From the IMG/VR virus record IMGVR_UViG_3300031862_000640: a stretch of DNA of 20,000 nt. The stretch is one strand, 5' to 3'. Within the stretch, counting starts at the first letter, position 1. Each line of letters begins with the position of its first letter. The translations under genes were made by a program, and so were the position numbers. The stretch is from an uncultured virus (IMG/VR IMGVR_UViG_3300031862_000640) (Duplodnaviria > Heunggongvirae > Uroviricota > Caudoviricetes). A model generated the notes under the pieces. That model was not told where the DNA came from. It did not search any database and saw nothing but the letters and a program-made list of their open reading frames with translations. This document shows, piece by piece, positions 127 to 16,418 of the stretch.

Positions 127-249
127 ATGAAATGCGGTGGCGACGTAGTTCCAGTCGCGGCTTGGATTCGCGGACGCCAAACGTATCAATGCCAAAAATG
201 CGGGCAAGCCTACTATCATTACAGGAAAAAATGCAATAGAGAAGTGTGA
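127..249 (+). CDS. small Cys-rich (Zn-ribbon-like) hypothetical protein, 40 aa
   Basis: MKCGGDVVPVAAWIRGRQTYQCQKCGQAYYHYRKKCNREV; GAGGAG upstream; stop overlaps next start (GTGA). Confidence 0.45.
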   Translation: MKCGGDVVPVAAWIRGRQTYQCQKCGQAYYHYRKKCNREV

Positions 250-503
250 AGGCGTTGGCACAACATAAAGAAACTCTTGAAAAGATTCTGGAGCTGCTGA
301 AAAAGCAGTATCCTACAGACAAAATAATTTTCCAAGGATTGCAGTATTTTGACGACAGGAAGCCACTGGTAGTTGTCATAACCATTCACCATGACGACCA
401 TGATAATGCCGACCGTCTGAGACAATATTCTCTCTACACCACGATAAAACAAGAACAGATCCTGATCCCAAAAATCGTAGCTATGGAATTTGAGGCGAAA
501 TAA
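246..503 (+). CDS. hypothetical protein
   Basis: 85-aa ORF coupled to neighbours (GTGA and TAATG overlaps). Confidence 0.65.
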   Translation: MKALAQHKETLEKILELLKKQYPTDKIIFQGLQYFDDRKPLVVVITIHHDDHDNADRLRQYSLYTTIKQEQILIPKIVAMEFEAK

Positions 504-934
504 TGCAATGTCCTGACTGCGGAACGGAAATGTGGCAAACTGGCTGGGGAACAAGCGAAGCATATACTTGTCCGAAGTGCAGTTGCTACATAGAAATTCA
601 TCATCGACAAAAGGCGCAGGCAAAAAGCGCTGAAGAAGAACCATACTGCATTTGTTGCGGCAAGCTGATGAGCTACATACGTGCAAAGTTGGAGAGAAAG
701 AAGTTTGTTGACGGCAAACGGTTCTGGAAAGGACACTTCCAATACCAAAGCCATCCAAAGGACATCTATGACAGAAACTTCGTCAAACATTGCGAGCATT
801 GTGGACACAGACTATTAGATGGCGACGTACATACTGTCAGCGAGTTTATGGGAATGTATGGTTCAGCAAGAGCCAACCAGACAATTCTGACAGGCTACAA
901 GTGTAGCAAGTGTGGTTTTGAAACAGAATTTTAG
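503..934 (+). CDS. multi-Zn-ribbon protein
   Basis: Five CxxC pairs (CPDC, CPKC, CICC, CEHC, CSKC); TAATG coupling. Confidence 0.75.
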   Translation: MQCPDCGTEMWQTGWGTSEAYTCPKCSCYIEIHHRQKAQAKSAEEEPYCICCGKLMSYIRAKLERKKFVDGKRFWKGHFQYQSHPKDIYDRNFVKHCEHCGHRLLDGDVHTVSEFMGMYGSARANQTILTGYKCSKCGFETEF

Positions 935-946
935 GAGGTTGATATT

Positions 947-1321
947 ATGGGAGGAGAAATGTGTTTAGCAGGTTTTGAGAAACCTGAAAAGATGAGCATG
1001 GCAGACTTCAAAGCAAAACTATTAGCCAATGTTGAAGCGCTGACGCTTGAAGCCGACATGGATGCTATCGAAAGCTTCTTCGAAAATCTGTCGGGAGACA
1101 TCCCCGAAATCATAGACATCGAACAGGTCAAAAAACAATTCAGAGAAATCATTGAGGAAACAATAAAGCATTCAGAATATCGTGACGTAACCATCTACCA
1201 TCACAAAGGTGTCGACATTTACCTTTCAGGCGGAATGTCGTGGGGCGACGGACCGACAGACAGTTACGATGTCTTTGAACAGTTCCAGTACCTACCCGAA
1301 AAAGTTACGGTGATGGAATAA
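947..1321 (+). CDS. acidic hypothetical protein
   Basis: 124 aa; strong AGGAGGT RBS; TAATG coupling to the ligase. Confidence 0.75.
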   Translation: MGGEMCLAGFEKPEKMSMADFKAKLLANVEALTLEADMDAIESFFENLSGDIPEIIDIEQVKKQFREIIEETIKHSEYRDVTIYHHKGVDIYLSGGMSWGDGPTDSYDVFEQFQYLPEKVTVME

Positions 1322-2475
1322 TGGTTAAGACATCAAACAAAGACGCAGAAGTAATGAAGCTAAAGCCTGACATGGTGCTCGTGCCAAGCCCACAATCGAA
1401 GTATTGGGCTCGGTCGAACGAATTACAACTGAACGAAAACTCGCTTGCCATCGCGAAAGCGGATGGTGAGTTCAATTTACTGGTGTATTCAAACGGTGTA
1501 GCAACTACGCGAAACAAATATGGCAGATGTGAAGACAGCAACAATGTTCCAGCATTACAGGAATTGGCGCAACTACTTAAGAAACGGGTGTCGTCGCTGA
1601 AATCTGCTAAATTTCTCGTAGAGATGTATGCTAAGGACAAGAATGGCAAACCGTTAAAGGTCAGCGACTTCATCCATTACTTGAAGGGCAAAGACCACAA
1701 AGATAAATATTGCAAGTATAAGCTCTGCTACGGAATGTCAGTTAAAGCAGTGCACGGTTTAATTTGTCTTGGACTGTTTGATCTGGTTGAAGTAGACGGC
1801 AAGAAGATCAACATTGACTGGGACTGGAAACTAAATGAAATGGATAGCATGATTAATGGCGGATCAGTTCGGGTGCATGTTTTACCGTTTATGCATGTCA
1901 AAACCAAGAAGGATGTTGAGAGGGCGTGGCAAGAATATAAACTTCGCAGAGGCTATGAAGGGCTTGTGGTTCACACGGATGGCGTAACCTCAAAATTGAA
2001 GCCTGAAATCGAATTGGACGCGGTAATAGTGGCAGTGCAGAAGAATGACGGATACCGAAAGAAATCGGTGACAAGCGTAAGATGTGCATTGATGACTGGT
2101 CCGAACACATTCCTGGAAATCGGCGATGTGTCATCGGGCATAACCCATGCGTTGCGAGCGGAGTTGTGGAAATTCAAGACTGAGTTTCTTCTGGATGAGA
2201 ACAGCAAGTTTGCTTATGTTCATCCGTTGGTAGTGATTAAACTTCGAGTCAATGGCCTGTATTGCCATCAGATGCCAAAATGGAAACTGGTCAACGGCAA
2301 ACGAGTAGACCTTGGCTCGGCAGACTCGATAACCATGCGCCATCCGACACTTGAAGAAATCCGAGAAGACAAGCGCCCGTCGGTCAAGGAAACGGGACTT
2401 TTGCAGGTGCCTAAAATAGTTCCGAATGGCTTTCATCTTGATGAAAAAGATGTGGATGTGAAAAGACATTTCTGA
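1321..2475 (+). CDS. lig: ATP-dependent DNA ligase, minimal (adenylation + OB domains)
   Basis: Motif I AKADGE (KxDG), IIIa LFDL, IV EGLVV, V KLKP followed by ELDAVIV, GDVSSG, and VI MRHP...IREDK; no N-terminal DNA-binding domain. Confidence 0.88.
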   Translation: MVKTSNKDAEVMKLKPDMVLVPSPQSKYWARSNELQLNENSLAIAKADGEFNLLVYSNGVATTRNKYGRCEDSNNVPALQELAQLLKKRVSSLKSAKFLVEMYAKDKNGKPLKVSDFIHYLKGKDHKDKYCKYKLCYGMSVKAVHGLICLGLFDLVEVDGKKINIDWDWKLNEMDSMINGGSVRVHVLPFMHVKTKKDVERAWQEYKLRRGYEGLVVHTDGVTSKLKPEIELDAVIVAVQKNDGYRKKSVTSVRCALMTGPNTFLEIGDVSSGITHALRAELWKFKTEFLLDENSKFAYVHPLVVIKLRVNGLYCHQMPKWKLVNGKRVDLGSADSITMRHPTLEEIREDKRPSVKETGLLQVPKIVPNGFHLDEKDVDVKRHF

Positions 2476-3103
2476 AAGAGGATGGAGAGCAATTCGTTGT
2501 GAACAGTGCCAAACCAAATATCGAAACGGGTATAGGCGTGAACAGTATCGGCGAGACCCACAAAGGTTTCGTGACTACGTTAAGAAAAACATCGACCAAC
2601 TTGGTAAAGAAGGCAGGAGACAGCGCCATAAAAAGGATTGGGAAAAATATCATGTAAGACGTCGGGCGCACGCCAAACAATATTATGAAGATGTTTTCTT
2701 GAAGCAACGAGCAGAGTGGGGATTTAGCAACAAAGAAGTAGCTGAAAAAGCTGAAAGAATAGCGATTCCAATTCTTGAAGAAAAAGGATTCAGCGACTTG
2801 TGGAAGGTGAACCGAGCTTTTCCTTTTGACGTAATAGCGAAGAAGGATGGAGACATTTACTTCATTGAAGTTACATCTTGCTATAAAAAAATGATTAAGT
2901 CGCATCAACAGAAACTTGCAAGCTATTTAGGTATTCAAATGCTTGTTCTTTTTATAAAGCCAGACTTGACGCAGTACAAATTAGTCTCGCCCGTAACTCG
3001 CAATGTGTGCGTCTTCTCAAAGTTTCAGCCAGAAGGAACGACAAAAACTCCATCGTTAATATACGAAAAATACATACAAGAACGGATAGTGACAGAGCCT
3101 TGA
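2462..3103 (+). CDS. PD-(D/E)XK-fold endonuclease with N-terminal CxxC and basic helical region (start uncertain)
   Basis: Frame open from 2462 (KDISERGWRAIRCEQCQTKYRNGYRREQYRR...); first canonical start is TTG 2699; core EKAERIA...FPFDVIAKKDGDIYFIEVTS (Thr in place of the usual Lys). Confidence 0.7.
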   Translation, partial: KDISERGWRAIRCEQCQTKYRNGYRREQYRRDPQRFRDYVKKNIDQLGKEGRRQRHKKDWEKYHVRRRAHAKQYYEDVFLKQRAEWGFSNKEVAEKAERIAIPILEEKGFSDLWKVNRAFPFDVIAKKDGDIYFIEVTSCYKKMIKSHQQKLASYLGIQMLVLFIKPDLTQYKLVSPVTRNVCVFSKFQPEGTTKTPSLIYEKYIQERIVTEP

Positions 3104-3129
3104 TTCCACATCGAGGAAGAAATCTACAA

Positions 3130-3204
3130 GAGATAGGCTTAAACCAAATCCCCAAGATAGTTCCGAGCGGCAATAATCTTAATGAGAAAGACATAGACAT
3201 ATAG
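3130..3204 (+). pseudogene. orphan duplicate of the ligase 3' end
   Basis: EIGLNQIPKIVPSGNNLNEKDIDI matches ligase ETGLLQVPKIVPNGFHLDEKDVDV (2389-2460) at 15/24 aa. Confidence 0.8.
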
Positions 3205-3288
3205 ATGTTCGTCGGACGAACATTTTTAAAGAAGAAACCAATAAGAAATAACTGTGGTTTCTGGCAAGGAGAGACAAAAACGAAAAAA

Positions 3289-3510
3289 ATGCCAAGATTG
3301 ATTTATTGTCTTCGATGCAAGATACTTTACAAGGTGTTTCCGCAAATAGGAGCAATGAAAGTAAGAAATAATGTCTTAAGGCTTCAAATAATCGTTGAAA
3401 AAGTGAAGTTGCGATATAGACGATGGCAATGTAACAGGCTTCTTTATCGGTTTTTGGAAGTTGAAGGAAAGAAAATACCCAAACTTGTTAGCGGAGCTGA
3501 CGTTGAGTGA
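3289..3510 (+). CDS. basic hypothetical protein
   Basis: ATG 3289 downstream of AGGAGAG; stop overlaps next start (GTGA). Confidence 0.5.
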   Translation: MPRLIYCLRCKILYKVFPQIGAMKVRNNVLRLQIIVEKVKLRYRRWQCNRLLYRFLEVEGKKIPKLVSGADVE

Positions 3511-4010
3511 GCGCATACAATTTTCCTGAGAGCCTGCAGACAGGTAACAACCTCTCAAAAAGAGCCCTTGAACCGCCACACAGAAGACTACTTGAGGAAA
3601 CCCTCAAACTCTTAGCGCACAAGTACCATTACCTCACGATTTCACCAGTCCGTGATTCAGTTGGCACATTCGCATATCTCGTGCGCGACCCACACAACCA
3701 AAGAGCCTACCTCATAGCAAAAGCAAGCCGCATATGGCAGGACACAATAAGCTGCCAAGCATTCTTCCCTAATCGACTACAAACCGAGAAACGACCCCTA
3801 ATGCTCGCACTCTACAACGAAGACACAAACGAAACTAAATTCTATCTATTCGACCCAACAGCCATCATCAAATTTGTCAAAGCCAACCCAAACTTCGGAT
3901 ACGACCCGAGATTTGATGTTCAAATGGTGAACTTTAGCATGAACCTCGCCCACGCATTTGACCCAAGCACAAGCTTGGAAGAAGCATGGAACCAAATAAA
4001 ATCTCAATGA
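3507..4010 (+). CDS. hypothetical protein with atypical C-rich/G-poor composition
   Basis: 167-aa ORF with coupled start; alpha/beta pattern; no confident family. Confidence 0.7.
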   Translation: MSAYNFPESLQTGNNLSKRALEPPHRRLLEETLKLLAHKYHYLTISPVRDSVGTFAYLVRDPHNQRAYLIAKASRIWQDTISCQAFFPNRLQTEKRPLMLALYNEDTNETKFYLFDPTAIIKFVKANPNFGYDPRFDVQMVNFSMNLAHAFDPSTSLEEAWNQIKSQ

Positions 4011-4128
4011 GATTTGAGAACATATGTTCGCCGAAATGACGAAGTTGACTGCGATTAAGGGCGTAGTTTGTTGCTTGGACTATGTGCCAAGCAAGTCAAG
4101 AAAATAATTGGTGAAGGTGATTTGTAGA

Positions 4129-4568
4129 ATGAAGTTGTTTGAACCGAACGAGTTTGTAGAGAACTCGGCAAGAATGGAGAGTGAAGAAGTTTGGCCGGAA
4201 TAATAGCGTTTCTCGACCAAAATTCCGTCACTGGCGGTAAACTGGTGTTGTTTTGTTTTGACGATGAGACATGCGAAGAGGTTGAAGCTGAACTCGAGAA
4301 CTCAGATAAATCTAATATCACAGACATCTACAAGCGATTACGCAAGGAAAGTGGGCATTGTATCTTTGCTGAGATAACCCTTGACTCAATTTGGAACGTA
4401 GCGATGAAAGGTAAGATGAGACATGAGGAATTAAAGATGGCTATCAATGAGTCGAATTTGACCGAGGAATCAAAAGAAATGTTGAAAACAATTTTATCAG
4501 ACTTCGCAGGTGAAACTTGGCGGAGAAGAAAACGGTGGAATCTTTTACGGCCCCCATCAATCTGTTAG
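4129..4568 (+). pseudogene. probably disrupted hypothetical gene (frameshift near 4190; 3' end overwritten by a glmM-like fragment)
   Basis: ATG 4129 with GGTGA RBS reads MKLFEPNEFVENSARMESEE then stops at 4203; the main ORF continues in another frame from 4191; sequence after ...SDFAGE reads the inserted fragment out of frame. Confidence 0.45.
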
Positions 4569-4596
4569 GGATGGAGCAATGGCAACAGCCTTAATC
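4513..4596 (+). other. glmM: 84-bp fragment of a cellular phosphoglucosamine/phosphomannomutase gene
   Basis: Translates KLGGEENGGIFYGPHQSVRDGAMATALI, the sugar-binding GGEENGG loop plus RDG motif of archaeal alpha-D-phosphohexomutases; no flanking homology visible. Confidence 0.85.
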
Positions 4597-4621
4597 CGAC
4601 ATCTAAGGAGAAGGGAAAAAC

Positions 4622-4849
4622 ATGGCAAGACCGCAAGAGGAACATACGAGCAACTTTTCGTTGATAAAGGAAGAAGGGCGAGTCCCCGAACCTTTCAAGG
4701 CTACCCTCATAGATGCGAGAACCAAAAAAGAAGCGGAAACTCTATTTCGAAAAGAGCATAGCGAAAAAGAAGCACAGATAGATGAGATTCAAGTGAACAT
4801 GTTCTGTGCGATGGTGATTTGGCACTCCCCTAAGACTCCAACAGTCTGA
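4622..4849 (+). CDS. hypothetical protein
   Basis: 75 aa; purine-rich RBS region upstream. Confidence 0.6.
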   Translation: MARPQEEHTSNFSLIKEEGRVPEPFKATLIDARTKKEAETLFRKEHSEKEAQIDEIQVNMFCAMVIWHSPKTPTV

Positions 4850-4854
4850 AGATA

Positions 4855-5058
4855 GTGAAAACTATGGACGAGACTGAGGAACATTTGAGAAACCGTCTAA
4901 AAGAACACGGTTACAAATTGATTAAAATTACTCACTTCAAAAGGTTTGACCGTGTGACCTTTGGCAACAGAAAAGTCAAAATAAGCATTAATTTAAGGGG
5001 AAAGCTAAGCGAACTTGCTTTTGAAACCCTGGTCGAAGCTTGCGTAGGAAGGAGGTGA
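4855..5058 (+). CDS. small basic hypothetical protein
   Basis: 67 aa, tightly packed in the operon. Confidence 0.6.
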   Translation: MKTMDETEEHLRNRLKEHGYKLIKITHFKRFDRVTFGNRKVKISINLRGKLSELAFETLVEACVGRR

Positions 5059-5062
5059 AAAA

Positions 5063-5614
5063 ATGGTAAGAGAAGATACATTCCCACGATATGACGTTCA
5101 GGAATACGGACAATTAATCATGGACACAATCGCTAAGGCTTTAGCAGCTTTGAAGGAGTTAGGAGTCACTCATGCAGTATATTGGTCATTTCCATGGGCA
5201 CTACCTAAGAGAGATGACTACATCACACGCATAGAGGTTCCAGTTGACCAGTTTCCTTACAAGAGCACAGGTGTCGATGTGCGCGTAGATAATGTCGACA
5301 AGTTTGATTTGACTCTACGCATTGCCGAAGACAAGGCTGTTCTTGAGGCAGAGATGACAATTAACGAATTATTGACGCCACAATACCAAGGAATCCTTGA
5401 CGCATTGTCTGCTGATGCAGTGCTTAAACTGGTTAATTCGCTTGAAAAATGGGTCAATGACCGTCATAAGAGTATTCAGGATAGCTACCAAAAGGATCCC
5501 GCGAGGATGAGATGGTATCTTACCGAACCTGACCTCTTGTGGAGAAAGCAGATGTGCAAAGAGCTACATAGCGTTCTTGTGAGGAAATCAGAAGCTCTAT
5601 CAGAGGAGACATGA
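5063..5614 (+). CDS. hypothetical protein
   Basis: 183 aa; GGAGGTGA RBS; ATGA overlap with next gene. Confidence 0.75.
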   Translation: MVREDTFPRYDVQEYGQLIMDTIAKALAALKELGVTHAVYWSFPWALPKRDDYITRIEVPVDQFPYKSTGVDVRVDNVDKFDLTLRIAEDKAVLEAEMTINELLTPQYQGILDALSADAVLKLVNSLEKWVNDRHKSIQDSYQKDPARMRWYLTEPDLLWRKQMCKELHSVLVRKSEALSEET

Positions 5615-5808
5615 AAATGAGAGCTATTGTGACAGTCAGGTTGCCCAGAAATCCCAAACATAATCCACACCACAAACAAACAGGTGTCTGTCCACTTTCC
5701 ATGGTTGTGAAAGGAGTGACTCAATGCACAGACATCACAGGAGAACATCATAGCTACATTGAGGAAGGAGAGGACTTGACAGAGATAGAGACGAAAGCAA
5801 GAGAATAG
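5611..5808 (+). CDS. small His/Cys-containing hypothetical protein
   Basis: 65 aa; GAGGAG RBS; HNPHH, CPL, CTD, HHS potential metal ligands; last gene before the intergenic region. Confidence 0.65.
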   Translation: MKMRAIVTVRLPRNPKHNPHHKQTGVCPLSMVVKGVTQCTDITGEHHSYIEEGEDLTEIETKARE

Positions 5809-5903
5809 AGCTAATAGTGATTACTGTTGGATAATTTCCTCCTACGGTAATCATCTTATGGAGAGTCCAAATGGATTTAACGTCACGCTGGACACACCAA
5901 AAT

Positions 5904-5931
5904 TGTTGTGATGTTTATATAGGACACAACA
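5904..5931 (+). promoter_or_regulatory. archaeal TATA box flanked by an inverted-repeat operator
   Basis: TGTTGTG (5904-5910) and CACAACA (5925-5931) form a perfect 7-bp inverted repeat around TTTATATA (5914-5921), ~40 nt upstream of the wHTH gene. Confidence 0.7.
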
Positions 5932-5962
5932 TTGCGGAATGCTGTGGGATGCGAATAACACT

Positions 5963-6283
5963 ATGGTAATCAGGAGGAAATCATACAGGGCTAAATTTCA
6001 AGTCACTGCAAGCGTATTAGAATACTGTAACATGGTCGCTAGGAAATCTACAAGTATACAACTTAAATGCGGTCTTGGCAACCAGTATTTTGACTTGTTG
6101 ACGGAACTGGCTACACAGAATCTAATAAGCAAACGTCAAATTGGTGCACGGTTTGAATATATAACAACACCACTTGGCAGAGAATGGCTTCATCACTATT
6201 ACGCTCTTATGAGGTTGCAAGGAGAGGGCGACTATGGTAATGTCTTCAGTAGCGTAGCAGGGCAAGGCCTGAAACGAGTTTAG
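5963..6283 (+). CDS. winged helix-turn-helix transcriptional regulator (archaeal COG3432/HTH_45-like)
   Basis: R..FQVTASVLEYC...STSIQLKCGL...LLTELATQNLI...EYITTPLGREWL matches the family pattern (YxxTxxGxxxL wing); alternative ATG at 5939. Confidence 0.8.
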   Translation: MVIRRKSYRAKFQVTASVLEYCNMVARKSTSIQLKCGLGNQYFDLLTELATQNLISKRQIGARFEYITTPLGREWLHHYYALMRLQGEGDYGNVFSSVAGQGLKRV

Positions 6284-6286
6284 TTA

Positions 6287-6382
6287 TGGAGAACCGCTAA
6301 CAGGAGTACGAAACCATTGGGCGGTAGGCTTGTTAGCGTACTCGCTTATCTCGCAGGATAAACTTGCCCGAGCGCTTTTCTA
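6287..6382 (+). ncRNA. putative structured RNA of unknown class
   Basis: Multiple helices that need G-U pairs on the + strand: 6295-6304/6329-6338, 6304-6310/6337-6343, 6346-6350/6357-6361, 6317-6324/6364-6371, 6287-6293/6376-6382. Confidence 0.5.
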
Positions 6383-6393
6383 CAAAAAACCGA

Positions 6394-6448
6394 GCCTGCA
6401 TTAGCCAGTTACCTCCATGTGGTGCAGGCGGATAACGCTAAAACTGGC
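6394..6448 (+). ncRNA. minimal HDV-like (theta-type) self-cleaving ribozyme
   Basis: P1 GCCUGC 6394-6399/GCAGGC 6424-6429; P2 GCCAGUU 6404-6410/AACUGGC 6442-6448; P3 ACC/GGU closing L3 UCCAUGU; P1.1 CC 6415-6416/GG 6430-6431; J4/2 GCUAA with candidate catalytic C6438; no P4. Confidence 0.85.
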
Positions 6449-6486
6449 CAAGTTTGAAGAGCAATAAAAAAGAGGAGATGGTTTGA

Positions 6487-6837
6487 ATGAGCAAAAACCA
6501 TAAGCCTAAAAAGGCTTCCAGTAAGAAGAATAAAAAAGTAGAGAAGAAGCCAGTCCATGTCTGCGGCGCCATCAATGGAGTCATGGGTAAAGGAGCGTTT
6601 TCGAAAGAAGGCGACAAATTCCGCTGCGTAGAATGCGGGAAAGTACACGACAAGATTCCAGAAGGATACATGGCAGCACTTAAGAAACTAAGTCCAAAGA
6701 AAGCGGCCTTGCTTGAAAAGGGTGCGAAGAAAAACAAAGATGCGGCAAAGAACCCGATTATGGTCGAGGCTGGGAAGAAGTCATGGAAAACACGAAGAGA
6801 GAACGAGGCAGCCAAGAACAAGAAGCAGAAAAAGTAA
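6487..6837 (+). CDS. very basic protein with Cys/His Zn-ribbon
   Basis: Lys-rich; HVC...CVECGKVH; C-terminal EAGKKSWKTRREN motif; GAGGAG RBS. Confidence 0.75.
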   Translation: MSKNHKPKKASSKKNKKVEKKPVHVCGAINGVMGKGAFSKEGDKFRCVECGKVHDKIPEGYMAALKKLSPKKAALLEKGAKKNKDAAKNPIMVEAGKKSWKTRRENEAAKNKKQKK

Positions 6838-7106
6838 GGGCAATTCTCACACAGCAAAACTGTTTGACATGTGCTAAGAACTGTAAAGGTTTCTGTTCTG
6901 GCGTGCACAAACGACTTGACCCGAAAGACATTGCTGTAGGAAAGATGAAATGTGACGGAGAAAAACATGAACCAATCCTCACAAGAGCCCAAGTCGAAGA
7001 CATCACCAACATCTGGACTTACTCCATGGTTCCCCGAACCGACGAGGGAGAAGACCATGAACAACCAAGCCGTATGCTTACCGACCAAAGCCACCTTGAC
7101 CTCTGA
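6783..7106 (+). CDS. Cys-rich hypothetical protein (start uncertain)
   Basis: CLTCAKNCKGFC...KCDG fills the gap after 6837; overlaps both neighbours. Confidence 0.45.
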   Translation: MENTKRERGSQEQEAEKVRAILTQQNCLTCAKNCKGFCSGVHKRLDPKDIAVGKMKCDGEKHEPILTRAQVEDITNIWTYSMVPRTDEGEDHEQPSRMLTDQSHLDL

Positions 7107-7197
7107 CAAGCTGAAAGTCATCAGAGGCATTCTTGAGAATACGCCTGCCGAGGATTTTCACACGATTTGTCAAGTGCTATGGGAGAACGGTGCATAA
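7057..7197 (+). CDS. small hypothetical protein, 46 aa
   Basis: ATG after GAGGGAG; stop lies just before the next ATG at 7199. Confidence 0.5.
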   Translation: MNNQAVCLPTKATLTSDKLKVIRGILENTPAEDFHTICQVLWENGA

Positions 7198-7198
7198 A

Positions 7199-7441
7199 AT
7201 GGAAGCCAAAGTTGTTTTGAATAAGACTAGCAAAAAAGTGCCGAAATGTCCGAAGTGTAATGAACCAATGGACACAATTCACTATGAGGAATGTGGTCCC
7301 ATAATCTTTGATGAAGAAAAAGGTTGCTATGTTGATGGTGGACAATCGCAGCAGATCATAAAGTGTGGAAGCTGTGGTCAACCGATAGGTGGCTGCCGTG
7401 GCGATGGCGAACATTGGGGTTTCCAACCAGAGAGGGAATAG
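7199..7441 (+). CDS. Zn-ribbon protein
   Basis: CPKC...CGSC; tightly packed in the operon. Confidence 0.7.
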   Translation: MEAKVVLNKTSKKVPKCPKCNEPMDTIHYEECGPIIFDEEKGCYVDGGQSQQIIKCGSCGQPIGGCRGDGEHWGFQPERE

Positions 7442-7442
7442 T

Positions 7443-7658
7443 ATGCAAGACAGTAAAAAGAGGTCAATTCTTAAAACATTCACTTCCAAACTTGTTGAAG
7501 TAGTAATTTCAGCGACGGCGCTTCAAATAATCTTTGGACAACCTTTTATAAGCTTAGGCTTGCCAATTTTGCTTGAAGGCTTGCAGATGATAGGCTACTA
7601 TTTCCATGAAAGAGCCTGGAACAAAGTTCGCTGGGGGCAATGGCTGCGAACAATGTAA
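7443..7658 (+). CDS. DUF2061-like small membrane protein
   Basis: DSKKRSILKT...two hydrophobic segments...YYFHERAWNKVRWG matches the DUF2061 signature. Confidence 0.8.
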   Translation: MQDSKKRSILKTFTSKLVEVVISATALQIIFGQPFISLGLPILLEGLQMIGYYFHERAWNKVRWGQWLRTM

Positions 7659-7673
7659 ATGGAGGCGTTAGAT

Positions 7674-7808
7674 ATGGGAACCAAAGTTGTTTTGACTCGA
7701 TGCAAAGATGGGCGATGGCAAATCAAAGGCTATGGATTAGTCTGGGAGAAAGACCTCATTAAATCATTGAAAGAGGTCGTTCCTGAAGAAGACTGCTCAG
7801 GGTGGTGA
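7674..7808 (+). CDS. small hypothetical protein, 44 aa
   Basis: MGTKVVLTRCKDGRWQIKGYGLVWEKDLIKSLKEVVPEEDCSGW; GGAGG RBS. Confidence 0.55.
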   Translation: MGTKVVLTRCKDGRWQIKGYGLVWEKDLIKSLKEVVPEEDCSGW

Positions 7809-7812
7809 AAGA

Positions 7813-8202
7813 ATGAGCGAACAAGCGTTAGACGAGTACGAAGTTGTTGATGTCTACGCCATAGTCATCCCTCCAAGCTGGATTAAAACCGCACCACAAG
7901 ACCTTGTGCATGACGCTGAAAGACTGGTGTTTGAGTCTGAAGAACTAGCCAGAGAGTTTGCAGCGAAAGCCACAGAGAAAAACAGTTTCTGGGGCTTTGA
8001 CGTAGTGAAGAAATCGTTGCTGAAACGAAAGCAAGTTACCATCCTCAAAATGGCGCAGTTTCGAACAAGATTTATGGCATCCATTACAAACCCGAACGAA
8101 CGTAGTGCTATCACGGAAGAAGACATCGCAGGGCTCTACGCAGACTACTTTAAGTCAGGCAACAACTTCGACCAATGGTTAAAGGAGAATAGGAAACGAT
8201 GA
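7813..8202 (+). CDS. hypothetical protein
   Basis: 129 aa; GGTGGTGA RBS; ATGA overlap. Confidence 0.7.
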   Translation: MSEQALDEYEVVDVYAIVIPPSWIKTAPQDLVHDAERLVFESEELAREFAAKATEKNSFWGFDVVKKSLLKRKQVTILKMAQFRTRFMASITNPNERSAITEEDIAGLYADYFKSGNNFDQWLKENRKR

Positions 8203-8453
8203 AGAGCAAATCACTGTACCTCGTAAAATGGACGCCCCTAAAAGACATAACACCAGAAGAAGTTGACTTCCTGAAGGAACATTTCGACGAAAGCGACTCC
8301 GACCATTCACTATACATTGAAGAAGACAATTTCAACGAGGTTCTGAAAAACCTGACCAAAGTAGACAAAAAGAAATTCGCAAACCTGTTAGGCATCATCA
8401 AGGACAAACTATCCGAGAACGAAGGTGACATAAGCGTAGCCATAGGCGATTAA
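8199..8453 (+). CDS. acidic hypothetical protein
   Basis: 84 aa, translationally coupled. Confidence 0.7.
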   Translation: MKSKSLYLVKWTPLKDITPEEVDFLKEHFDESDSDHSLYIEEDNFNEVLKNLTKVDKKKFANLLGIIKDKLSENEGDISVAIGD

Positions 8454-8454
8454 A

Positions 8455-8556
8455 ATGGCTCGGCTTGAAAGAGTTTATAAATTCGCTAAAGACCACAAAC
8501 TTTCAAAGCGTGCGACAGACGAATTGGTAACTCTTGTTTTAGAAATAATTGATTAG
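8455..8556 (+). CDS. small hypothetical protein, 33 aa
   Basis: MARLERVYKFAKDHKLSKRATDELVTLVLEIID; fills the gap between two genes. Confidence 0.45.
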   Translation: MARLERVYKFAKDHKLSKRATDELVTLVLEIID

Positions 8557-8580
8557 AAGAAAAGAAAAAGGAGGAATAGT

Positions 8581-9828
8581 ATGAAAAAGTTTGAGTTTGA
8601 CCCTAATGAGGGTACGTATTACGAAAAGGTGTTCTCACCTCAAAAGGTAGAAGTGTTCAGGGATATAGTTGGAACGCAAACAGGGAAAACTGCTGTTGGA
8701 CAGCAACCGCCCAAGAAACCTCGGTTTGAAACGCGGCTTGTGCTTTCAGACAAGAATGGGCATAAGCTGGAAGTGAAAGGCAGACGACTTGTGCATCGCG
8801 TCATGCAGTATCTTCTACCATGGACTTCATTCGGTAGCGTCGGCAAACTCGCAGACCTTGAGGAAACACCAGACAAATTGCAGGACACGTTGACTAGGGC
8901 AGCAAAGAAATCACATCGCCAGTTGAAAACATACTTCGACGACGAAGGTCAGTTACACGGAATAGCAAGCGAGATACACCAGCAAATAAGCTGGGCAAAA
9001 ATCCGTGAGGTCGTGCAGGGTGCAGTCAAGAAAGCCTATCACGTTGTTGCTGAACCCGACCAAACAATGCCAACTGAGCCAAACAAATGGACATATAAGA
9101 TGCCAGTCAAGGACAAGAACAACAACGTGAGCGCATACGTGACGGTTGACGGCGGCAACAACATCATCAAAGGCAAAAGCGGAATCCGCGTCTACACAAG
9201 GCTCAGAACAGACAGAGGCGGTCCTGGCGGAGCGCCGGCGTGTCTGAACTGGTGTGGAATGTGGCTGGTGCCATTGCAATTCTTCGGCATAAAAACAGAA
9301 AGGCTCGGCATGAAAGACACTGAGGAAACACAGTTGAACATGCTGGAGATCCATTTGAAGTCGACGGCTGAAGGCATGAACGAAATCGAAGCAATCTTGG
9401 CAGCCAAAATGAAGAGCATGGCAAAAGTCGTTGAGAAACACATGATACCGCTCATAGAGGAAAGCCGTAAAGTATCCTTGGCAAAGAAAGAGATGAAAGC
9501 CATCCTCGAAGCATACGCAGAAAAAACACATCTGCCCAAATATATCATCGAACAAATCCTCGACAGCGTAGAAGAAAACACGGTCTGGGGATTCAGCAAC
9601 GCAGTATCCTATGTTCGTACACATGGGCAATTCGACGAGCGCAGAAGCCAGTTGCCACGAGAACAAAGACCACTCACACAGATCCTCGAGAACATCGCAG
9701 GAGAGGTACTTTCAATTACAAGAACTATCGCCAAACTGAAAGCAGTTCTGCCGAACAAGACTATAACACAGAGAGTCTTGACCAACCCACAGGAATTTCC
9801 ACAACTCAAAGCAATGGTCGTGAAATAA
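8581..9828 (+). CDS. DUF932/DUF945-like phage/plasmid protein
   Basis: GIASEIHQQI, SGIRVYTRL...ACLN and NTVWGFSNAVSYVRTHG resemble the family's CxN and TxWxxxNAxxxxxxH motifs; AGGAGG RBS. Confidence 0.65.
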   Translation: MKKFEFDPNEGTYYEKVFSPQKVEVFRDIVGTQTGKTAVGQQPPKKPRFETRLVLSDKNGHKLEVKGRRLVHRVMQYLLPWTSFGSVGKLADLEETPDKLQDTLTRAAKKSHRQLKTYFDDEGQLHGIASEIHQQISWAKIREVVQGAVKKAYHVVAEPDQTMPTEPNKWTYKMPVKDKNNNVSAYVTVDGGNNIIKGKSGIRVYTRLRTDRGGPGGAPACLNWCGMWLVPLQFFGIKTERLGMKDTEETQLNMLEIHLKSTAEGMNEIEAILAAKMKSMAKVVEKHMIPLIEESRKVSLAKKEMKAILEAYAEKTHLPKYIIEQILDSVEENTVWGFSNAVSYVRTHGQFDERRSQLPREQRPLTQILENIAGEVLSITRTIAKLKAVLPNKTITQRVLTNPQEFPQLKAMVVK

Positions 9829-14288: not shown

Positions 14289-16418
14289 GTGGCTAAGGTC
14301 AGAAAACAGATAGACCCGAAATGGCGAGAAGCTGGACGCAAAGCTGCTGAAACAAGACGTAGAAACCTTGAACGACTACGACAAAAAACAGATGACAAGA
14401 ATAAGGAAAAGACGAAGGAAACAAGCGATAAGACAAACAACGATAAAGCGAATGGTAAGTCATACGATACGAAGGAAGTGGAAACGAAGTGGCATCTAAC
14501 CTCACAGTCAAGCCTGACGTTGAAAGTAGACTTGCCAGCACGAGAACGACTCTCAGACTTCTGCGACACGCCGTGGACTGAAAAGTACAGACCGATATGC
14601 CTTAATGACTGCATAGGCGAAGTGGTTGGATACTTCAAAGCATTCGTGAAAACAGGGTCGTTCCCGCTTGCGTGCATCCTTCACGGAGAATATGGCGAGG
14701 GAAAAACGTCGATAGTCAAAGCAGCAGTCAGAGATTACTTCGTGCTTCGCGGTCTATTCCGTCGAGACGCAACATTCTTTGACATCACACACGCCAGTAA
14801 AGTCACAAGAGAGTACAACGGCATATTCGCTCCAGCCTTGTTCATAGACACAACGGTCGTTAAGTCAGGAGCCTTCAGCGCTGAAGAAATCATAAGAACC
14901 AGAGTTCAAAACTTCATGCAGTATTCCGTTGGCAAATGGCCAAAATTCATTTGCGTTAAGCCAGACATCGTAATACTTGGGGAGAACATACCAATTTCAA
15001 AACTGGAAACGAATGATGCAGTTGTCGGGTACGGCGGCATACAAAAAGTTATTCGCCCCTTTCAAAGAGCCTACAAAGGCAACATGGTCAGAATAAAAGC
15101 AGCAGGCATGCTTCCCTTCGAAGTTACGCCAGAGCACCCAGTCCTCGCAACGTACCTCAAACTCGGCAGGTACTGTATCTCCAATGTATATTCGCCCCTC
15201 AACTGGACAAAAGCACAAGATTTAGTTCCAAAGAAATGGAGAAAAAACGGACATTACGTCGTCATTCCTCGTCTAAAGGGCGATGTGGAGATGACATCTC
15301 TTAGTCTAAAACCGTTTGCGCGTCGACAACAGCATAGAATCCGCCGAGACAGGCAATATCGCCACAGCAAAGACTTTCCACTTAACGTGAACACCGCATG
15401 GCTGTTGGGTCTCTACGTTGCTGAGGGCTCTGGAAAAAGACAAATACAGTTGACTTTGCATAGTCGTGAACAACACATTTTGACAAGAGTACGGTCTATC
15501 TCTCAAGAACTACGTTCCGTAGCAGGAGCACAGACACAAGTAATACCAAACCCACACGCAAACAGCTTTGCAATCCGCATAGGGTCAGACATATTGGCGC
15601 GAGCCTTTAGGATGTGGTGTGGCGCGGGAGCGCACAATAAGAAAATTCCAGACTTCATCGCATTCCACAAAAACATCAATATTGTGCAAGCATTCTTAGA
15701 CGGATACGTCGCTGGTGACGGCTGCATCTGTCCTGAAACATACGACAATACGAAAACTCGCATTGCTATAACCACTACATCGAAAGTTCTTGTTCAACAA
15801 CTACAATTAATGTACGCAAGACTTGGAAAACCCTCTTTCATAAGCGTAGTTCCAGCTAATCCACACGTAAGAATCCTTGACCATATGAGCAAGAGCAGTG
15901 AAGCATACCATCTATACCTACCGAACCATGAAACACGATGGAAAATAGTCAAAGTTCAGCCAAACCATCTTCTTGTTCCCATCAGAAAGATTGAGCAAAA
16001 TCCCTATGAAGGACCAGTATGCAACGTTAAAACTACAGACAATACGTACTTGGTATCTAACGCGGTGGTTCACAATTGCTTTGATGAGACGGATCGCCTT
16101 GGACATGATTGTCAAGAAGTCGTGACAAGCCTCATTGAGAAGTACCCGCGAACCCGAACCCTTTGGACGTTAAATGACCTCGACAATATCATGGATAGAA
16201 TCGTGAGTAGAGCAGCTGGTGGCGTGTTCGAAGTCAAGAAGCCTGAACCAAAACTAATTGTTCCTCGGCTCAGACATATTGCTCAGTGGGAGAAAGTGAG
16301 GATACCTGAAGAAAAGATACGCGAGATAGCAAAGACGGCGCCAAGCGTTAGAGATGCCATAGGCTTACTGCAACAGCAATGTGTTCTGATTAAGGCAACA
16401 AGAGGTCGAAGAAGATGA
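14289..16418 (+). CDS. rfcS: RFC small subunit-like clamp-loader AAA+ ATPase, intein-containing
   Basis: PWTEKYRP (RFC box II), Walker A GEYGEGKT, Walker B CFDETD after splicing, sensor-1 TLN, SRA (SRC-like), lid SVRDAIGLLQ; 334 aa after removing the intein. Confidence 0.85.
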   Translation: MAKVRKQIDPKWREAGRKAAETRRRNLERLRQKTDDKNKEKTKETSDKTNNDKANGKSYDTKEVETKWHLTSQSSLTLKVDLPARERLSDFCDTPWTEKYRPICLNDCIGEVVGYFKAFVKTGSFPLACILHGEYGEGKTSIVKAAVRDYFVLRGLFRRDATFFDITHASKVTREYNGIFAPALFIDTTVVKSGAFSAEEIIRTRVQNFMQYSVGKWPKFICVKPDIVILGENIPISKLETNDAVVGYGGIQKVIRPFQRAYKGNMVRIKAAGMLPFEVTPEHPVLATYLKLGRYCISNVYSPLNWTKAQDLVPKKWRKNGHYVVIPRLKGDVEMTSLSLKPFARRQQHRIRRDRQYRHSKDFPLNVNTAWLLGLYVAEGSGKRQIQLTLHSREQHILTRVRSISQELRSVAGAQTQVIPNPHANSFAIRIGSDILARAFRMWCGAGAHNKKIPDFIAFHKNINIVQAFLDGYVAGDGCICPETYDNTKTRIAITTTSKVLVQQLQLMYARLGKPSFISVVPANPHVRILDHMSKSSEAYHLYLPNHETRWKIVKVQPNHLLVPIRKIEQNPYEGPVCNVKTTDNTYLVSNAVVHNCFDETDRLGHDCQEVVTSLIEKYPRTRTLWTLNDLDNIMDRIVSRAAGGVFEVKKPEPKLIVPRLRHIAQWEKVRIPEEKIREIAKTAPSVRDAIGLLQQQCVLIKATRGRRR
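14952..16076 (+). mobile_element. intein with LAGLIDADG homing endonuclease, 375 aa
   Basis: N-terminal C (CVKPD), block B VTPEHP, LAGLIDADG motifs LLGLYVAEGS and FLDGYVAGDG, block F/G VCNVKT...YLVSNAVVHN, +1 Cys. Confidence 0.95.

Follow-up and report, generated by a model that had tools for sequence, protein, structure and literature searches.

Introduction

The motif called bulge-helix-bulge (BHB) is defined in PMC4090602, where splicing enzymes of the α2β2 form are described as lenient on their substrates and tRNA introns as spanning 11–129 nt. The cut falls after the second bulge base and before the third (PMC2738675), and the route through EndA and RtcB is established for tRNA, rRNA and the 5′ UTR of HVO_1309 (PMC7714728, PMC12558985). 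In archaeal mRNAs, BHB introns have been described for Haloferax volcanii HVO_1309, whose 5′ UTR contains one of 46 nt (PMC7714728), and for crenarchaeal cbf5 (PMC2738675), which are the two cases beyond tRNA and rRNA listed in PMC7714728. As described in PMC3088659, a stem II of two base pairs and pseudoknots are common among natural hammerhead ribozymes, and a 1-nt insertion after A6 left low activity.

Here, we describe a rod-shaped RNA element in a stretch of 20,000 nucleotides from an uncultured virus (IMG/VR record IMGVR_UViG_3300031862_000640), referred to below as the window. The element is a real, conserved and unclassified RNA, and it is best explained as a transferable cassette for a non-coding RNA, carried by a probable virus of archaea. 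Features are collected in Table 1.

Table 1. Positions of the features in and around the RNA element (window coordinates)
Feature	Position	Strand	Basis
TATA-box-like hexamer, archaeal, candidate promoter	5914–5919	+	sole TATA-pattern match in 5801–6300
Winged-helix (wHTH) ORF, HTH_45/Sso10a-like	5963–6283	+	Pfam, NCBIfam, homolog P0002
Rod-shaped RNA element, whole; conserved core 6260–6369	6251–6376	+	folding against shuffles, identity to L083
Outer stem, 5′ arm, pairing with 6363–6369; shared with hammerhead-like stem I, whose 5′ arm it mostly makes up	6260–6266	+	probability 0.97–1.0
Hammerhead-like fold: stem I 6261–6268/6327–6334, core 6269–6277, stem II 6278–6279/6308–6309	6261–6338	+	descriptor
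Hammerhead-like fold, rest: GAAA 6310–6313, stem III 6313–6315/6323–6325, GUA, predicted cut 6326/6327		+	descriptor
BHB 5′ strand: CCUG 6268–6271, bulge AAA 6272–6274, CGAG 6275–6278	6268–6278	+	predicted cut 6273/6274
Predicted excised intron or circular RNA, 86 nt (87 nt in L083)	6274–6359	+	BHB geometry
Variable 8–9-nt block in internal loop, containing the wHTH stop codon	6280–6287	+	alignment
10-bp helix 6295–6304/6329–6338, closing the 24-nt apical loop 6305–6328	6295–6338	+	probability 0.95–0.99
BHB 3′ strand: CUCG 6350–6353, CAGG 6354–6357, bulge AUA 6358–6360	6350–6361	+	predicted cut 6359/6360
Minimal HDV-like ribozyme, predicted cut 6393/6394	6394–6448	+	descriptor, base-by-base reading
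Basic ORF, 116 aa, conserved Cys/His	6487–6837	+	24 matches including itself

Genomic Context of the Element

The window is a dense array of mostly uncharacterised ORFs on the + strand, and it encodes an ATP-dependent ligase domain, an RFC small subunit with an intein and winged-helix proteins. The intein is of the LAGLIDADG type and splits the RFC small subunit gene at 14289–16418. The element had been placed in an otherwise gapless region, which was overstated, as six further gaps, each 101–180 nt long, separate main + strand ORFs in 246–9828. A tRNA search of the window found none.

The wHTH ORF is listed with its start at ATG 5939, but ATG 5963 is likelier. It matched Pfam HTH_45 (E 2.9e-5, just under the cut-off) and NF053610 (E 6.5e-4, under the cut-off). 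The Atlas clusters nearest to it were 100% Archaea, most commonly Thermoproteota, Methanobacteriota and Bathyarchaeota. These clusters, the intein-bearing RFC small subunit and an archaeal-type CCA-adding enzyme near the homologous locus L083 (see below) are three signs of an archaeal context, and from these sequences the window is probably a virus of archaea. In the 154-nt gap ahead of the wHTH gene (5809–5962) there are the TATA-like box and a hairpin at 5818–5853, and 5858–5942 recurs, with ~91% conservation, in a run X3 contig. Downstream of the element, the basic 116-aa ORF had no Pfam, NCBIfam or confident Atlas match.

The final ~15 codons of the wHTH ORF overlap the RNA element and are unconserved; its homolog P0002 (82% identical) stops near residue 99. 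After the wHTH stop codon, the frame 6284–6361 is open for 25 codons, with the same endpoint in L083 (TAA vs. TAG) and conservative changes. This open frame is probably due to chance, and it shares no start codon with L083.

Conservation and Boundaries

A pattern scan of metagenomes returned 18 loci, two of which (L083 and L096) were true homologs. They differ at 22 of ~4,050 positions and were counted as one independent sequence, so that the whole comparison involves two independent sequences, the window and L083/L096. In run X1, from which the window may derive, a second, deeper contig matches 6288–6367, and its loose 5′ end resembles 6262–6279.

The interior 6274–6359 was identical to the window at 78/86 positions in L083 and at 77/86 in L096. 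In the two BHB arms, identity to L083 was 11/14 (6260–6273) and 8/10 (6360–6369). Outside 6260–6369 it fell to 7/25 in the 5′ flank and 8/31 in the 3′ flank (9/31 in L096). The conserved span thus corresponds exactly to both BHB arms plus the interior, and the flanks of L083 and L096 are unrelated to the window. Because identity to these loci begins there, the element starts within the last wHTH codons. The short block containing the wHTH stop codon was identical at 4/8 positions, with a 1-nt indel, compared with 68/72 in 6288–6359.

In L083, the copy lies in a ~526-nt non-coding stretch (L083:1813–2338), upstream of an ORF with an HEXXH motif, which is followed by the CCA-adding enzyme (2885–3931; archaeal-type, E 3.8e-21, below the cut-off). 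The wHTH ORF was not among the ORFs listed for L083, and the HDV-like descriptor had no match in the 4-kb loci L083 and L096. Since these copies have no HDV-like match, the element does not depend on the ribozyme, and the two modules are separable. The suggestion of a module made of wHTH regulator, structured RNA and ribozyme is therefore not supported by these two loci.

Further relatives were sought in several collections. True homologs numbered 0/2, 0/76, 0/1 and 0/2 in the pattern scans of a viral collection, with none among the at least 80 matches listed, and 0/8 in a scan of species genomes. These scans require exact motifs, which divergent members would escape. Against phages and plasmids, blastn gave only chance matches of 24–30 nt. 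Protein-guided locus searches for relatives returned no locus, and a covariance model, applied to the window and to 48 of 193 loci (49 sources in all), recovered the three sequences it had been trained on and nothing else. Rfam, over 17 chosen loci, identified a cobalamin riboswitch alone (RF00174, 114.8 bits, L080:1743–1949), in an unrelated locus that was a chance match of the scan. The literature search, with subscription journals mostly outside its coverage, turned up nothing published about this RNA or about BHB cassettes of archaeal viruses. The core motif was absent from the text supplements of PMC3088659 and PMC10085705, in which gapped alignments or figures could hide matches.

Predicted Fold of the Rod

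The segment 6251–6376 had a minimum free energy (MFE) of −47.3 kcal/mol (z −3.2), and 0/300 shuffled sequences folded as well; the core 6260–6369 gave z −3.3, again with 0/300. Pair probabilities were obtained for four spans at three temperatures, that is, 12 folds containing position 6260. In all 12, the outer, central, inner and 10-bp helices reached 0.92–1.0. The preliminary description had recognized a structured, unclassified RNA here, and this was borne out by the strong fold with corrected ends, the conservation in L083/L096 and the lack of any Rfam match to the window at E ≤ 5, hammerhead models included. Its boundaries, 6284–6393, had to be moved: that span folded no better than chance (z −0.97, 34/200 shuffles as good), and the element starts ~30 nt further 5′.

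Five complementary pairs had been named in that span, and a pair table showed that all of them can be written at their positions. As structure, the 10-bp helix stood (0.95–0.97), but the other four dropped to 0.00–0.01 once 6260 was included. In L083/L096, GAGUACG/CGUACUC acquires a C-A mismatch, the long-range pairing UUGGGCGG/UUGCCCGA loses 3/8 pairs, and the closing stem UGGAGAA/UUUUCUA loses 2/7 pairs in a flank that is non-homologous there. The hairpin UUAUC/GAUAA is kept in both loci with one U-G, but its probability was 0.00–0.01 in the 12 folds. The RNA had also been described as possibly bistable. The prediction is a single rod and no balanced switch, but a second, hammerhead-like fold does exist, built from helices other than those named.

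All pairs of the 10-bp helix are kept in L083/L096, with a compensatory change of C-G to U-A (6295/6338) and A6300G, which gives a G-U pair. The outer stem in L083 shows one compensatory change of G-C to A-U and one A-C mismatch (G6262A) that breaks a pair, and it is lengthened by unrelated flank sequence. The L083 rod reaches ~200 nt, with a side branch capped by a GAAA tetraloop (within 1813–2338). In the apical loop, 6306–6314 (G-UACGA-AA-C) fits the pattern of the T-loop module, UNNRA plus two extruded bases.

The + strand had been favoured for its G-U pairs. Changes of the G-U type and the handedness of the BHB back this assignment, but energy alone is insufficient, as the − strand of L083 gave the better fold (z −3.0, against −1.9 for the + strand). 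The better − strand of L083 would suit another explanation, in which the rod is a DNA element (MITE-like or a recombination hairpin) lately copied between co-occurring mobile elements, its conservation reflecting recent transfer. The sharp edges of homology between unrelated flanks point the same way, as does the presence of both copies in run X1 (depth 15 and 279). However, the changes at 6300 and 6354 produce G-U pairs on the + strand, which DNA or the − strand would have to carry as mismatches, and two changes are compensatory. The element also has imperfect end arms, which vary from copy to copy, no target-site duplication was seen by eye, and with the covariance model the window yielded just the one copy. 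We consider a DNA element very improbable.

Bulge-Helix-Bulge Motif and Predicted Circular RNA

At the base of the rod, a central helix of 4 bp (6268–6271/6354–6357) is followed by an inner helix (6275–6278/6350–6353), and each bulge lies 3′ of the central helix on its own strand. The outer pair 6267/6361 is G-A in the window, forming a relaxed 1×5 loop, and C-G in L083/L096. The motif in L083 is a strict hBHBh′ (3,0,0,3), for whose outer C-G 6267 and 6361 have each changed; the window has a strict 5′ site and a relaxed 3′ site. The inner helix h′ is 4 bp in all three copies, and the window has a 7-bp stem one step outside the G-A. The probabilities of H and h′ were 0.92–1.0 in the window and 0.91–0.96 in L083.

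Over both strands, 1,988 sliding folds contained a 3-nt bulge with an exact 4-bp helix, an opposite loop and the right handedness at one distinct site (6268). Shuffled sequences contained the BHB in 2/1,500 (window) and 5/1,500 (L083) cases, in a test designed after the motif had been seen. A loose BHB pattern was uninformative, with 43 + and 71 − matches in the window. Several observations weigh against the motif. C6354U in L096 leaves a G-U pair in place but lowers the probability of the central helix to 0.64, 0.52 or 0.00, depending on which of three contexts is folded, the 3′ site of the window is relaxed by the G-A in its 1×5 loop, and G6262A costs L083 a pair of the outer stem. The hammerhead-like arrangement described below, which is rarer than the BHB under shuffling, would be a coincidence if the BHB is what matters.

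The geometry suggests a processing route, in which we infer transcription, cleavage by EndA, ligation and any function of the element. The transcript would begin at the TATA-like box directly 5′ of the wHTH gene and, after passing through that gene, would fold into the rod with the BHB at its base. The host tRNA-splicing endonuclease EndA would then cut behind the second bulge base at both sites (6273/6274 and 6359/6360), and RtcB would close the 86-nt interior into a circle and join the flanks. Excision of 6274–6359 by host EndA for ligation into this circle is the favoured reading, at about even odds. The interior is conserved in sequence, whereas the flanks keep their pairing only, unlike in the cbf5 introns; thus, the circle is likely the functional part. 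Its apical and variable loops would be candidate contact surfaces, and none of the analyses turned up a partner for them. The 3′ end had been assigned to ribozyme cleavage at 6393, and the predicted EndA cut at 6359/6360 is deemed likelier.

Several other identities for the element or its product were considered and rejected. Neither the region nor its spliced product or circle gave a tRNA call at the default threshold, permuted and intron-containing forms included; an 80% threshold gave only "possible pseudogene" calls, and 29/200 shuffled circles were also called. The comparison with theta-ribozyme loci, where a tRNA occupies this place, thus extends to position alone, since this RNA is no tRNA, whether standard or permuted. 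A box C/D guide is not supported, as boxes C (RUGAUGA) and D (CUGA) are absent from the predicted circle and Rfam gave no match. For an antisense guide, the best duplexes of three segments with the + strand of the window (20 kb) were no better than those of shuffled queries (10 each). A TIGR- or Nop-associated guide was suggested by a Nop match beside L083, which was under the cut-off (E 0.002) and on the HEXXH-motif protein. A stop-codon readthrough signal or a protein-restoring mRNA intron was dismissed because no ORF enters the L083 element and the spliced frames were unconvincing. Resemblances to c-di-GMP-I, twister, pistol and group II D5 were not backed by Rfam.

Hammerhead-Like Alternative Fold

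The same RNA can be written as a type I hammerhead-like fold, whose core CUGA-AAC-GA (6269–6277) overlaps the 5′ strand of the BHB. GAAA, A15.1-U16.1 (A6313-U6325), G10.1-C11.1 (G6278-C6309) and the GUA triplet (H17 = A) are invariant in the three copies. A possible pseudoknot (6295–6299/6334–6338) is also compatible with the compensatory change at 6295/6338. Stem I has 7/8 pairs in the window (with a G-G mismatch) and 8/8 Watson-Crick pairs in L083; stems II and III have 2 and 3 bp. Position 7 should be a single base (CUGAnGA), and all copies have three bases, AAC. Because this defining feature fails, the element was not classed as a hammerhead, although it may still act like one.

A relaxed type I descriptor, built after the sequence was seen, matched 0/100,000 shuffles of the window and 1/100,000 of L083. 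Among 476,854 bases of loci, many of which had been picked on the hammerhead core itself, it matched only L083, L096 and L029. The match in L029 (− strand, ~433 to 365) has the CUGAAACGA core and a GUC triplet and is intergenic in a GC-rich phage; it overlaps the Shine-Dalgarno sequence of an apparent capsid gene and may be due to chance.

These features would suit a variant of the type I hammerhead in which position 7 spans 3 nt and which would cut at 6326/6327 briefly during transcription, alone or alongside the BHB. The 3′ arm would then silence the core by pairing, the BHB shape being a by-product of silencing or also used. The G-G of stem I would mark decay of the window copy, and cutting may have passed to the HDV-like ribozyme. 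Every core base is present in order, and the descriptor is rare in shuffles, although it is post hoc. The changes at 6261, 6262 and 6267 all improve stem I in L083, one of them at the cost of a rod pair, and the compensatory 6295/6338 change would also serve the pseudoknot. The 2-bp stem II and the pseudoknot have natural precedents (PMC3088659), but the two extra bases at position 7 must be set against the report that one already lowered activity (PMC3088659).

The energies argue against the variant, and the equilibrium fold left it unpopulated. The constrained hammerhead fold had −21.8 kcal/mol in the window, ~25 worse than the rod at −47.3, and truncated L083 gave −10.6 against −19.0 kcal/mol, the pseudoknot being uncounted in both. 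In nascent L083 RNA, stem I dominated transiently, with a probability of 1.0 at length 2068 and 0.17 by 2078; in the nascent window RNA, it was ≤0.01 at 10/10 lengths, and stem III was ≤0.02 in both copies. A hammerhead by itself also leaves the conservation of 6339–6369 unexplained. We therefore regard this reading as tentative and rather doubtful.

The lookalike in the gut phages L186–L190, which is more likely a coding −1-frame pseudoknot, indicates that such coincidences occur. This family has the same core and mimics a hammerhead of CSG order with G at the cut site and had the top score in the first hammerhead scan. It is an H-type pseudoknot (L186:1480–1575; also in L187–L191, L003, L004, L010, L025, L075, and L078) with stems of 9–10 and 6 bp, and it follows by a few bases the sequence G GGG GAA UAA, which closes a 158-aa ORF that is probably a tail tube gene from the gene order. 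The −1 frame is open for ~30 codons, and its changes are mostly synonymous. The element is probably a programmed −1 frameshift pseudoknot, and the synonymous changes rule out L003 and L186–L191 as support for a CUGAAACGA hammerhead class. A scan of the viral collection with the gut-phage pattern gave six loci, all of this family.

Selection on both folds, with nascent self-cleavage at 6326/6327 competing with EndA splicing after rod closure, appears improbable. With both folds selected, the two extra bases at position 7 would be the BHB bulge. Splicing would destroy the ribozyme core and yield an intact 86-nt circle, and self-cleavage followed by splicing would give a circularly permuted linear RNA. 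If true, this would be a natural switch between ribozyme and splice site, in a cassette passed between archaeal viruses.

HDV-Like Ribozyme Downstream of the Rod

The ribozyme named in the preliminary description is present, as a descriptor match. It consists of P1 (6394–6399/6424–6429, 6 bp), P2 (6404–6410/6442–6448), P3 (6411–6413/6421–6423) and L3 (6414–6420), with GG at 6430–6431, a predicted catalytic C6438 and no P4. The features of minimal HDV-like ribozymes were all found, namely, a nested double pseudoknot of P1/P2/P3/P1.1, U and G at L3 positions 1 and 6, and C-N-A in J4/2. It was the sole match of the HDV descriptor on the + strand in 20 kb; one weaker match on the − strand lies inside a coding region. 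A second HDV-like ribozyme inside the element was rejected, as the descriptor had no match there and P2 is broken in L083.

The predicted cut falls 17 nt beyond the rod. This distance, the strong and conserved fold, and the absence of rod-ribozyme pairing in the predicted folds would also suit a stable linear RNA or a protein-binding hairpin, neither spliced nor self-cleaving, with its 3′ end made by the HDV-like ribozyme. Such an RNA, which is close to what was first proposed, could act as a 3′ stabiliser of mRNA, an insulator or a site for a viral protein. It would require that the BHB geometry and the hammerhead-like core are both accidental, and L083/L096 have no HDV-like match in 4 kb. 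We hold it to be unlikely.

Under EndA splicing, the ribozyme would work as a module of its own, cutting this transcript and detaching the cassette from the genes downstream. The conserved RNA does adjoin a minimal HDV-like ribozyme, and the idea of an RNA-processing cassette is probably right in that sense. Two coding segments of the wHTH gene (6100–6113 and 6168–6189) are complementary to 6402–6424 in the P2/P3 region, and P1 had a probability of 0.09 in the 6100–6500 fold. Translation of the wHTH gene might, in this model, free the ribozyme from pairing with the coding sequence.

Comparison with Known Systems

The ribozyme shares with theta and minimal HDV-like ribozymes, as described in PMC10879173, the nested double pseudoknot, the lack of P4 and the catalytic C in J4/2. 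It is likewise in sense to the nearest ORFs and directly behind a structured RNA. Unlike the tRNA-associated theta ribozymes (PMC10879173), it has no tRNA 3′ end within 5 nt of the cut. The theta ribozymes belong to gut phage, whereas this element is of archaeal type and from sediment; "archae" does not occur in the main text of PMC10879173.

With type I hammerheads (PMC3088659; block nomenclature in PMC10085705), the alternative fold shares CUGA..GA, GAAA, A15.1-U16.1, the GUA triplet, stems I–III in CGS order, the 2-bp stem II and a possible pseudoknot between loop II and stem I. It differs from the descriptions in these papers in its three bases at position 7, in the sequestration of its core in a stabler rod and in the G-G of stem I in the window.

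The predicted 86-nt intron is within the size range of tRNA introns (PMC4090602). The circular tRNA-Trp intron, a box C/D guide (PMC12558985, PMC4090602), is a BHB-excised piece whose own sequence matters, as is predicted here. Compared with that intron as given in these sources, the element has no surrounding tRNA, no inner box C/D and no Rfam match, and its only CUGA is on the exon side.

Like the mRNA BHB introns described in PMC7714728 and PMC2738675, the element has its BHB, of hBHBh′ or relaxed form, at the foot of a hairpin within a transcript that is neither tRNA nor rRNA. It differs in that it is borne by a probable virus, occurs in two unrelated contexts and has a processing that is predicted. 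The interiors of the cbf5 introns are called "highly variable" in PMC2738675, whereas here it is the interior that is conserved, as opposed to the flanks. If the splicing route is true, archaeal viruses would borrow the tRNA-splicing machinery of the host for the production of small circular RNAs that have their own function. What is special to this locus is that the BHB overlaps a near-complete hammerhead core, beside a minimal HDV-like ribozyme, in an element of archaeal type.
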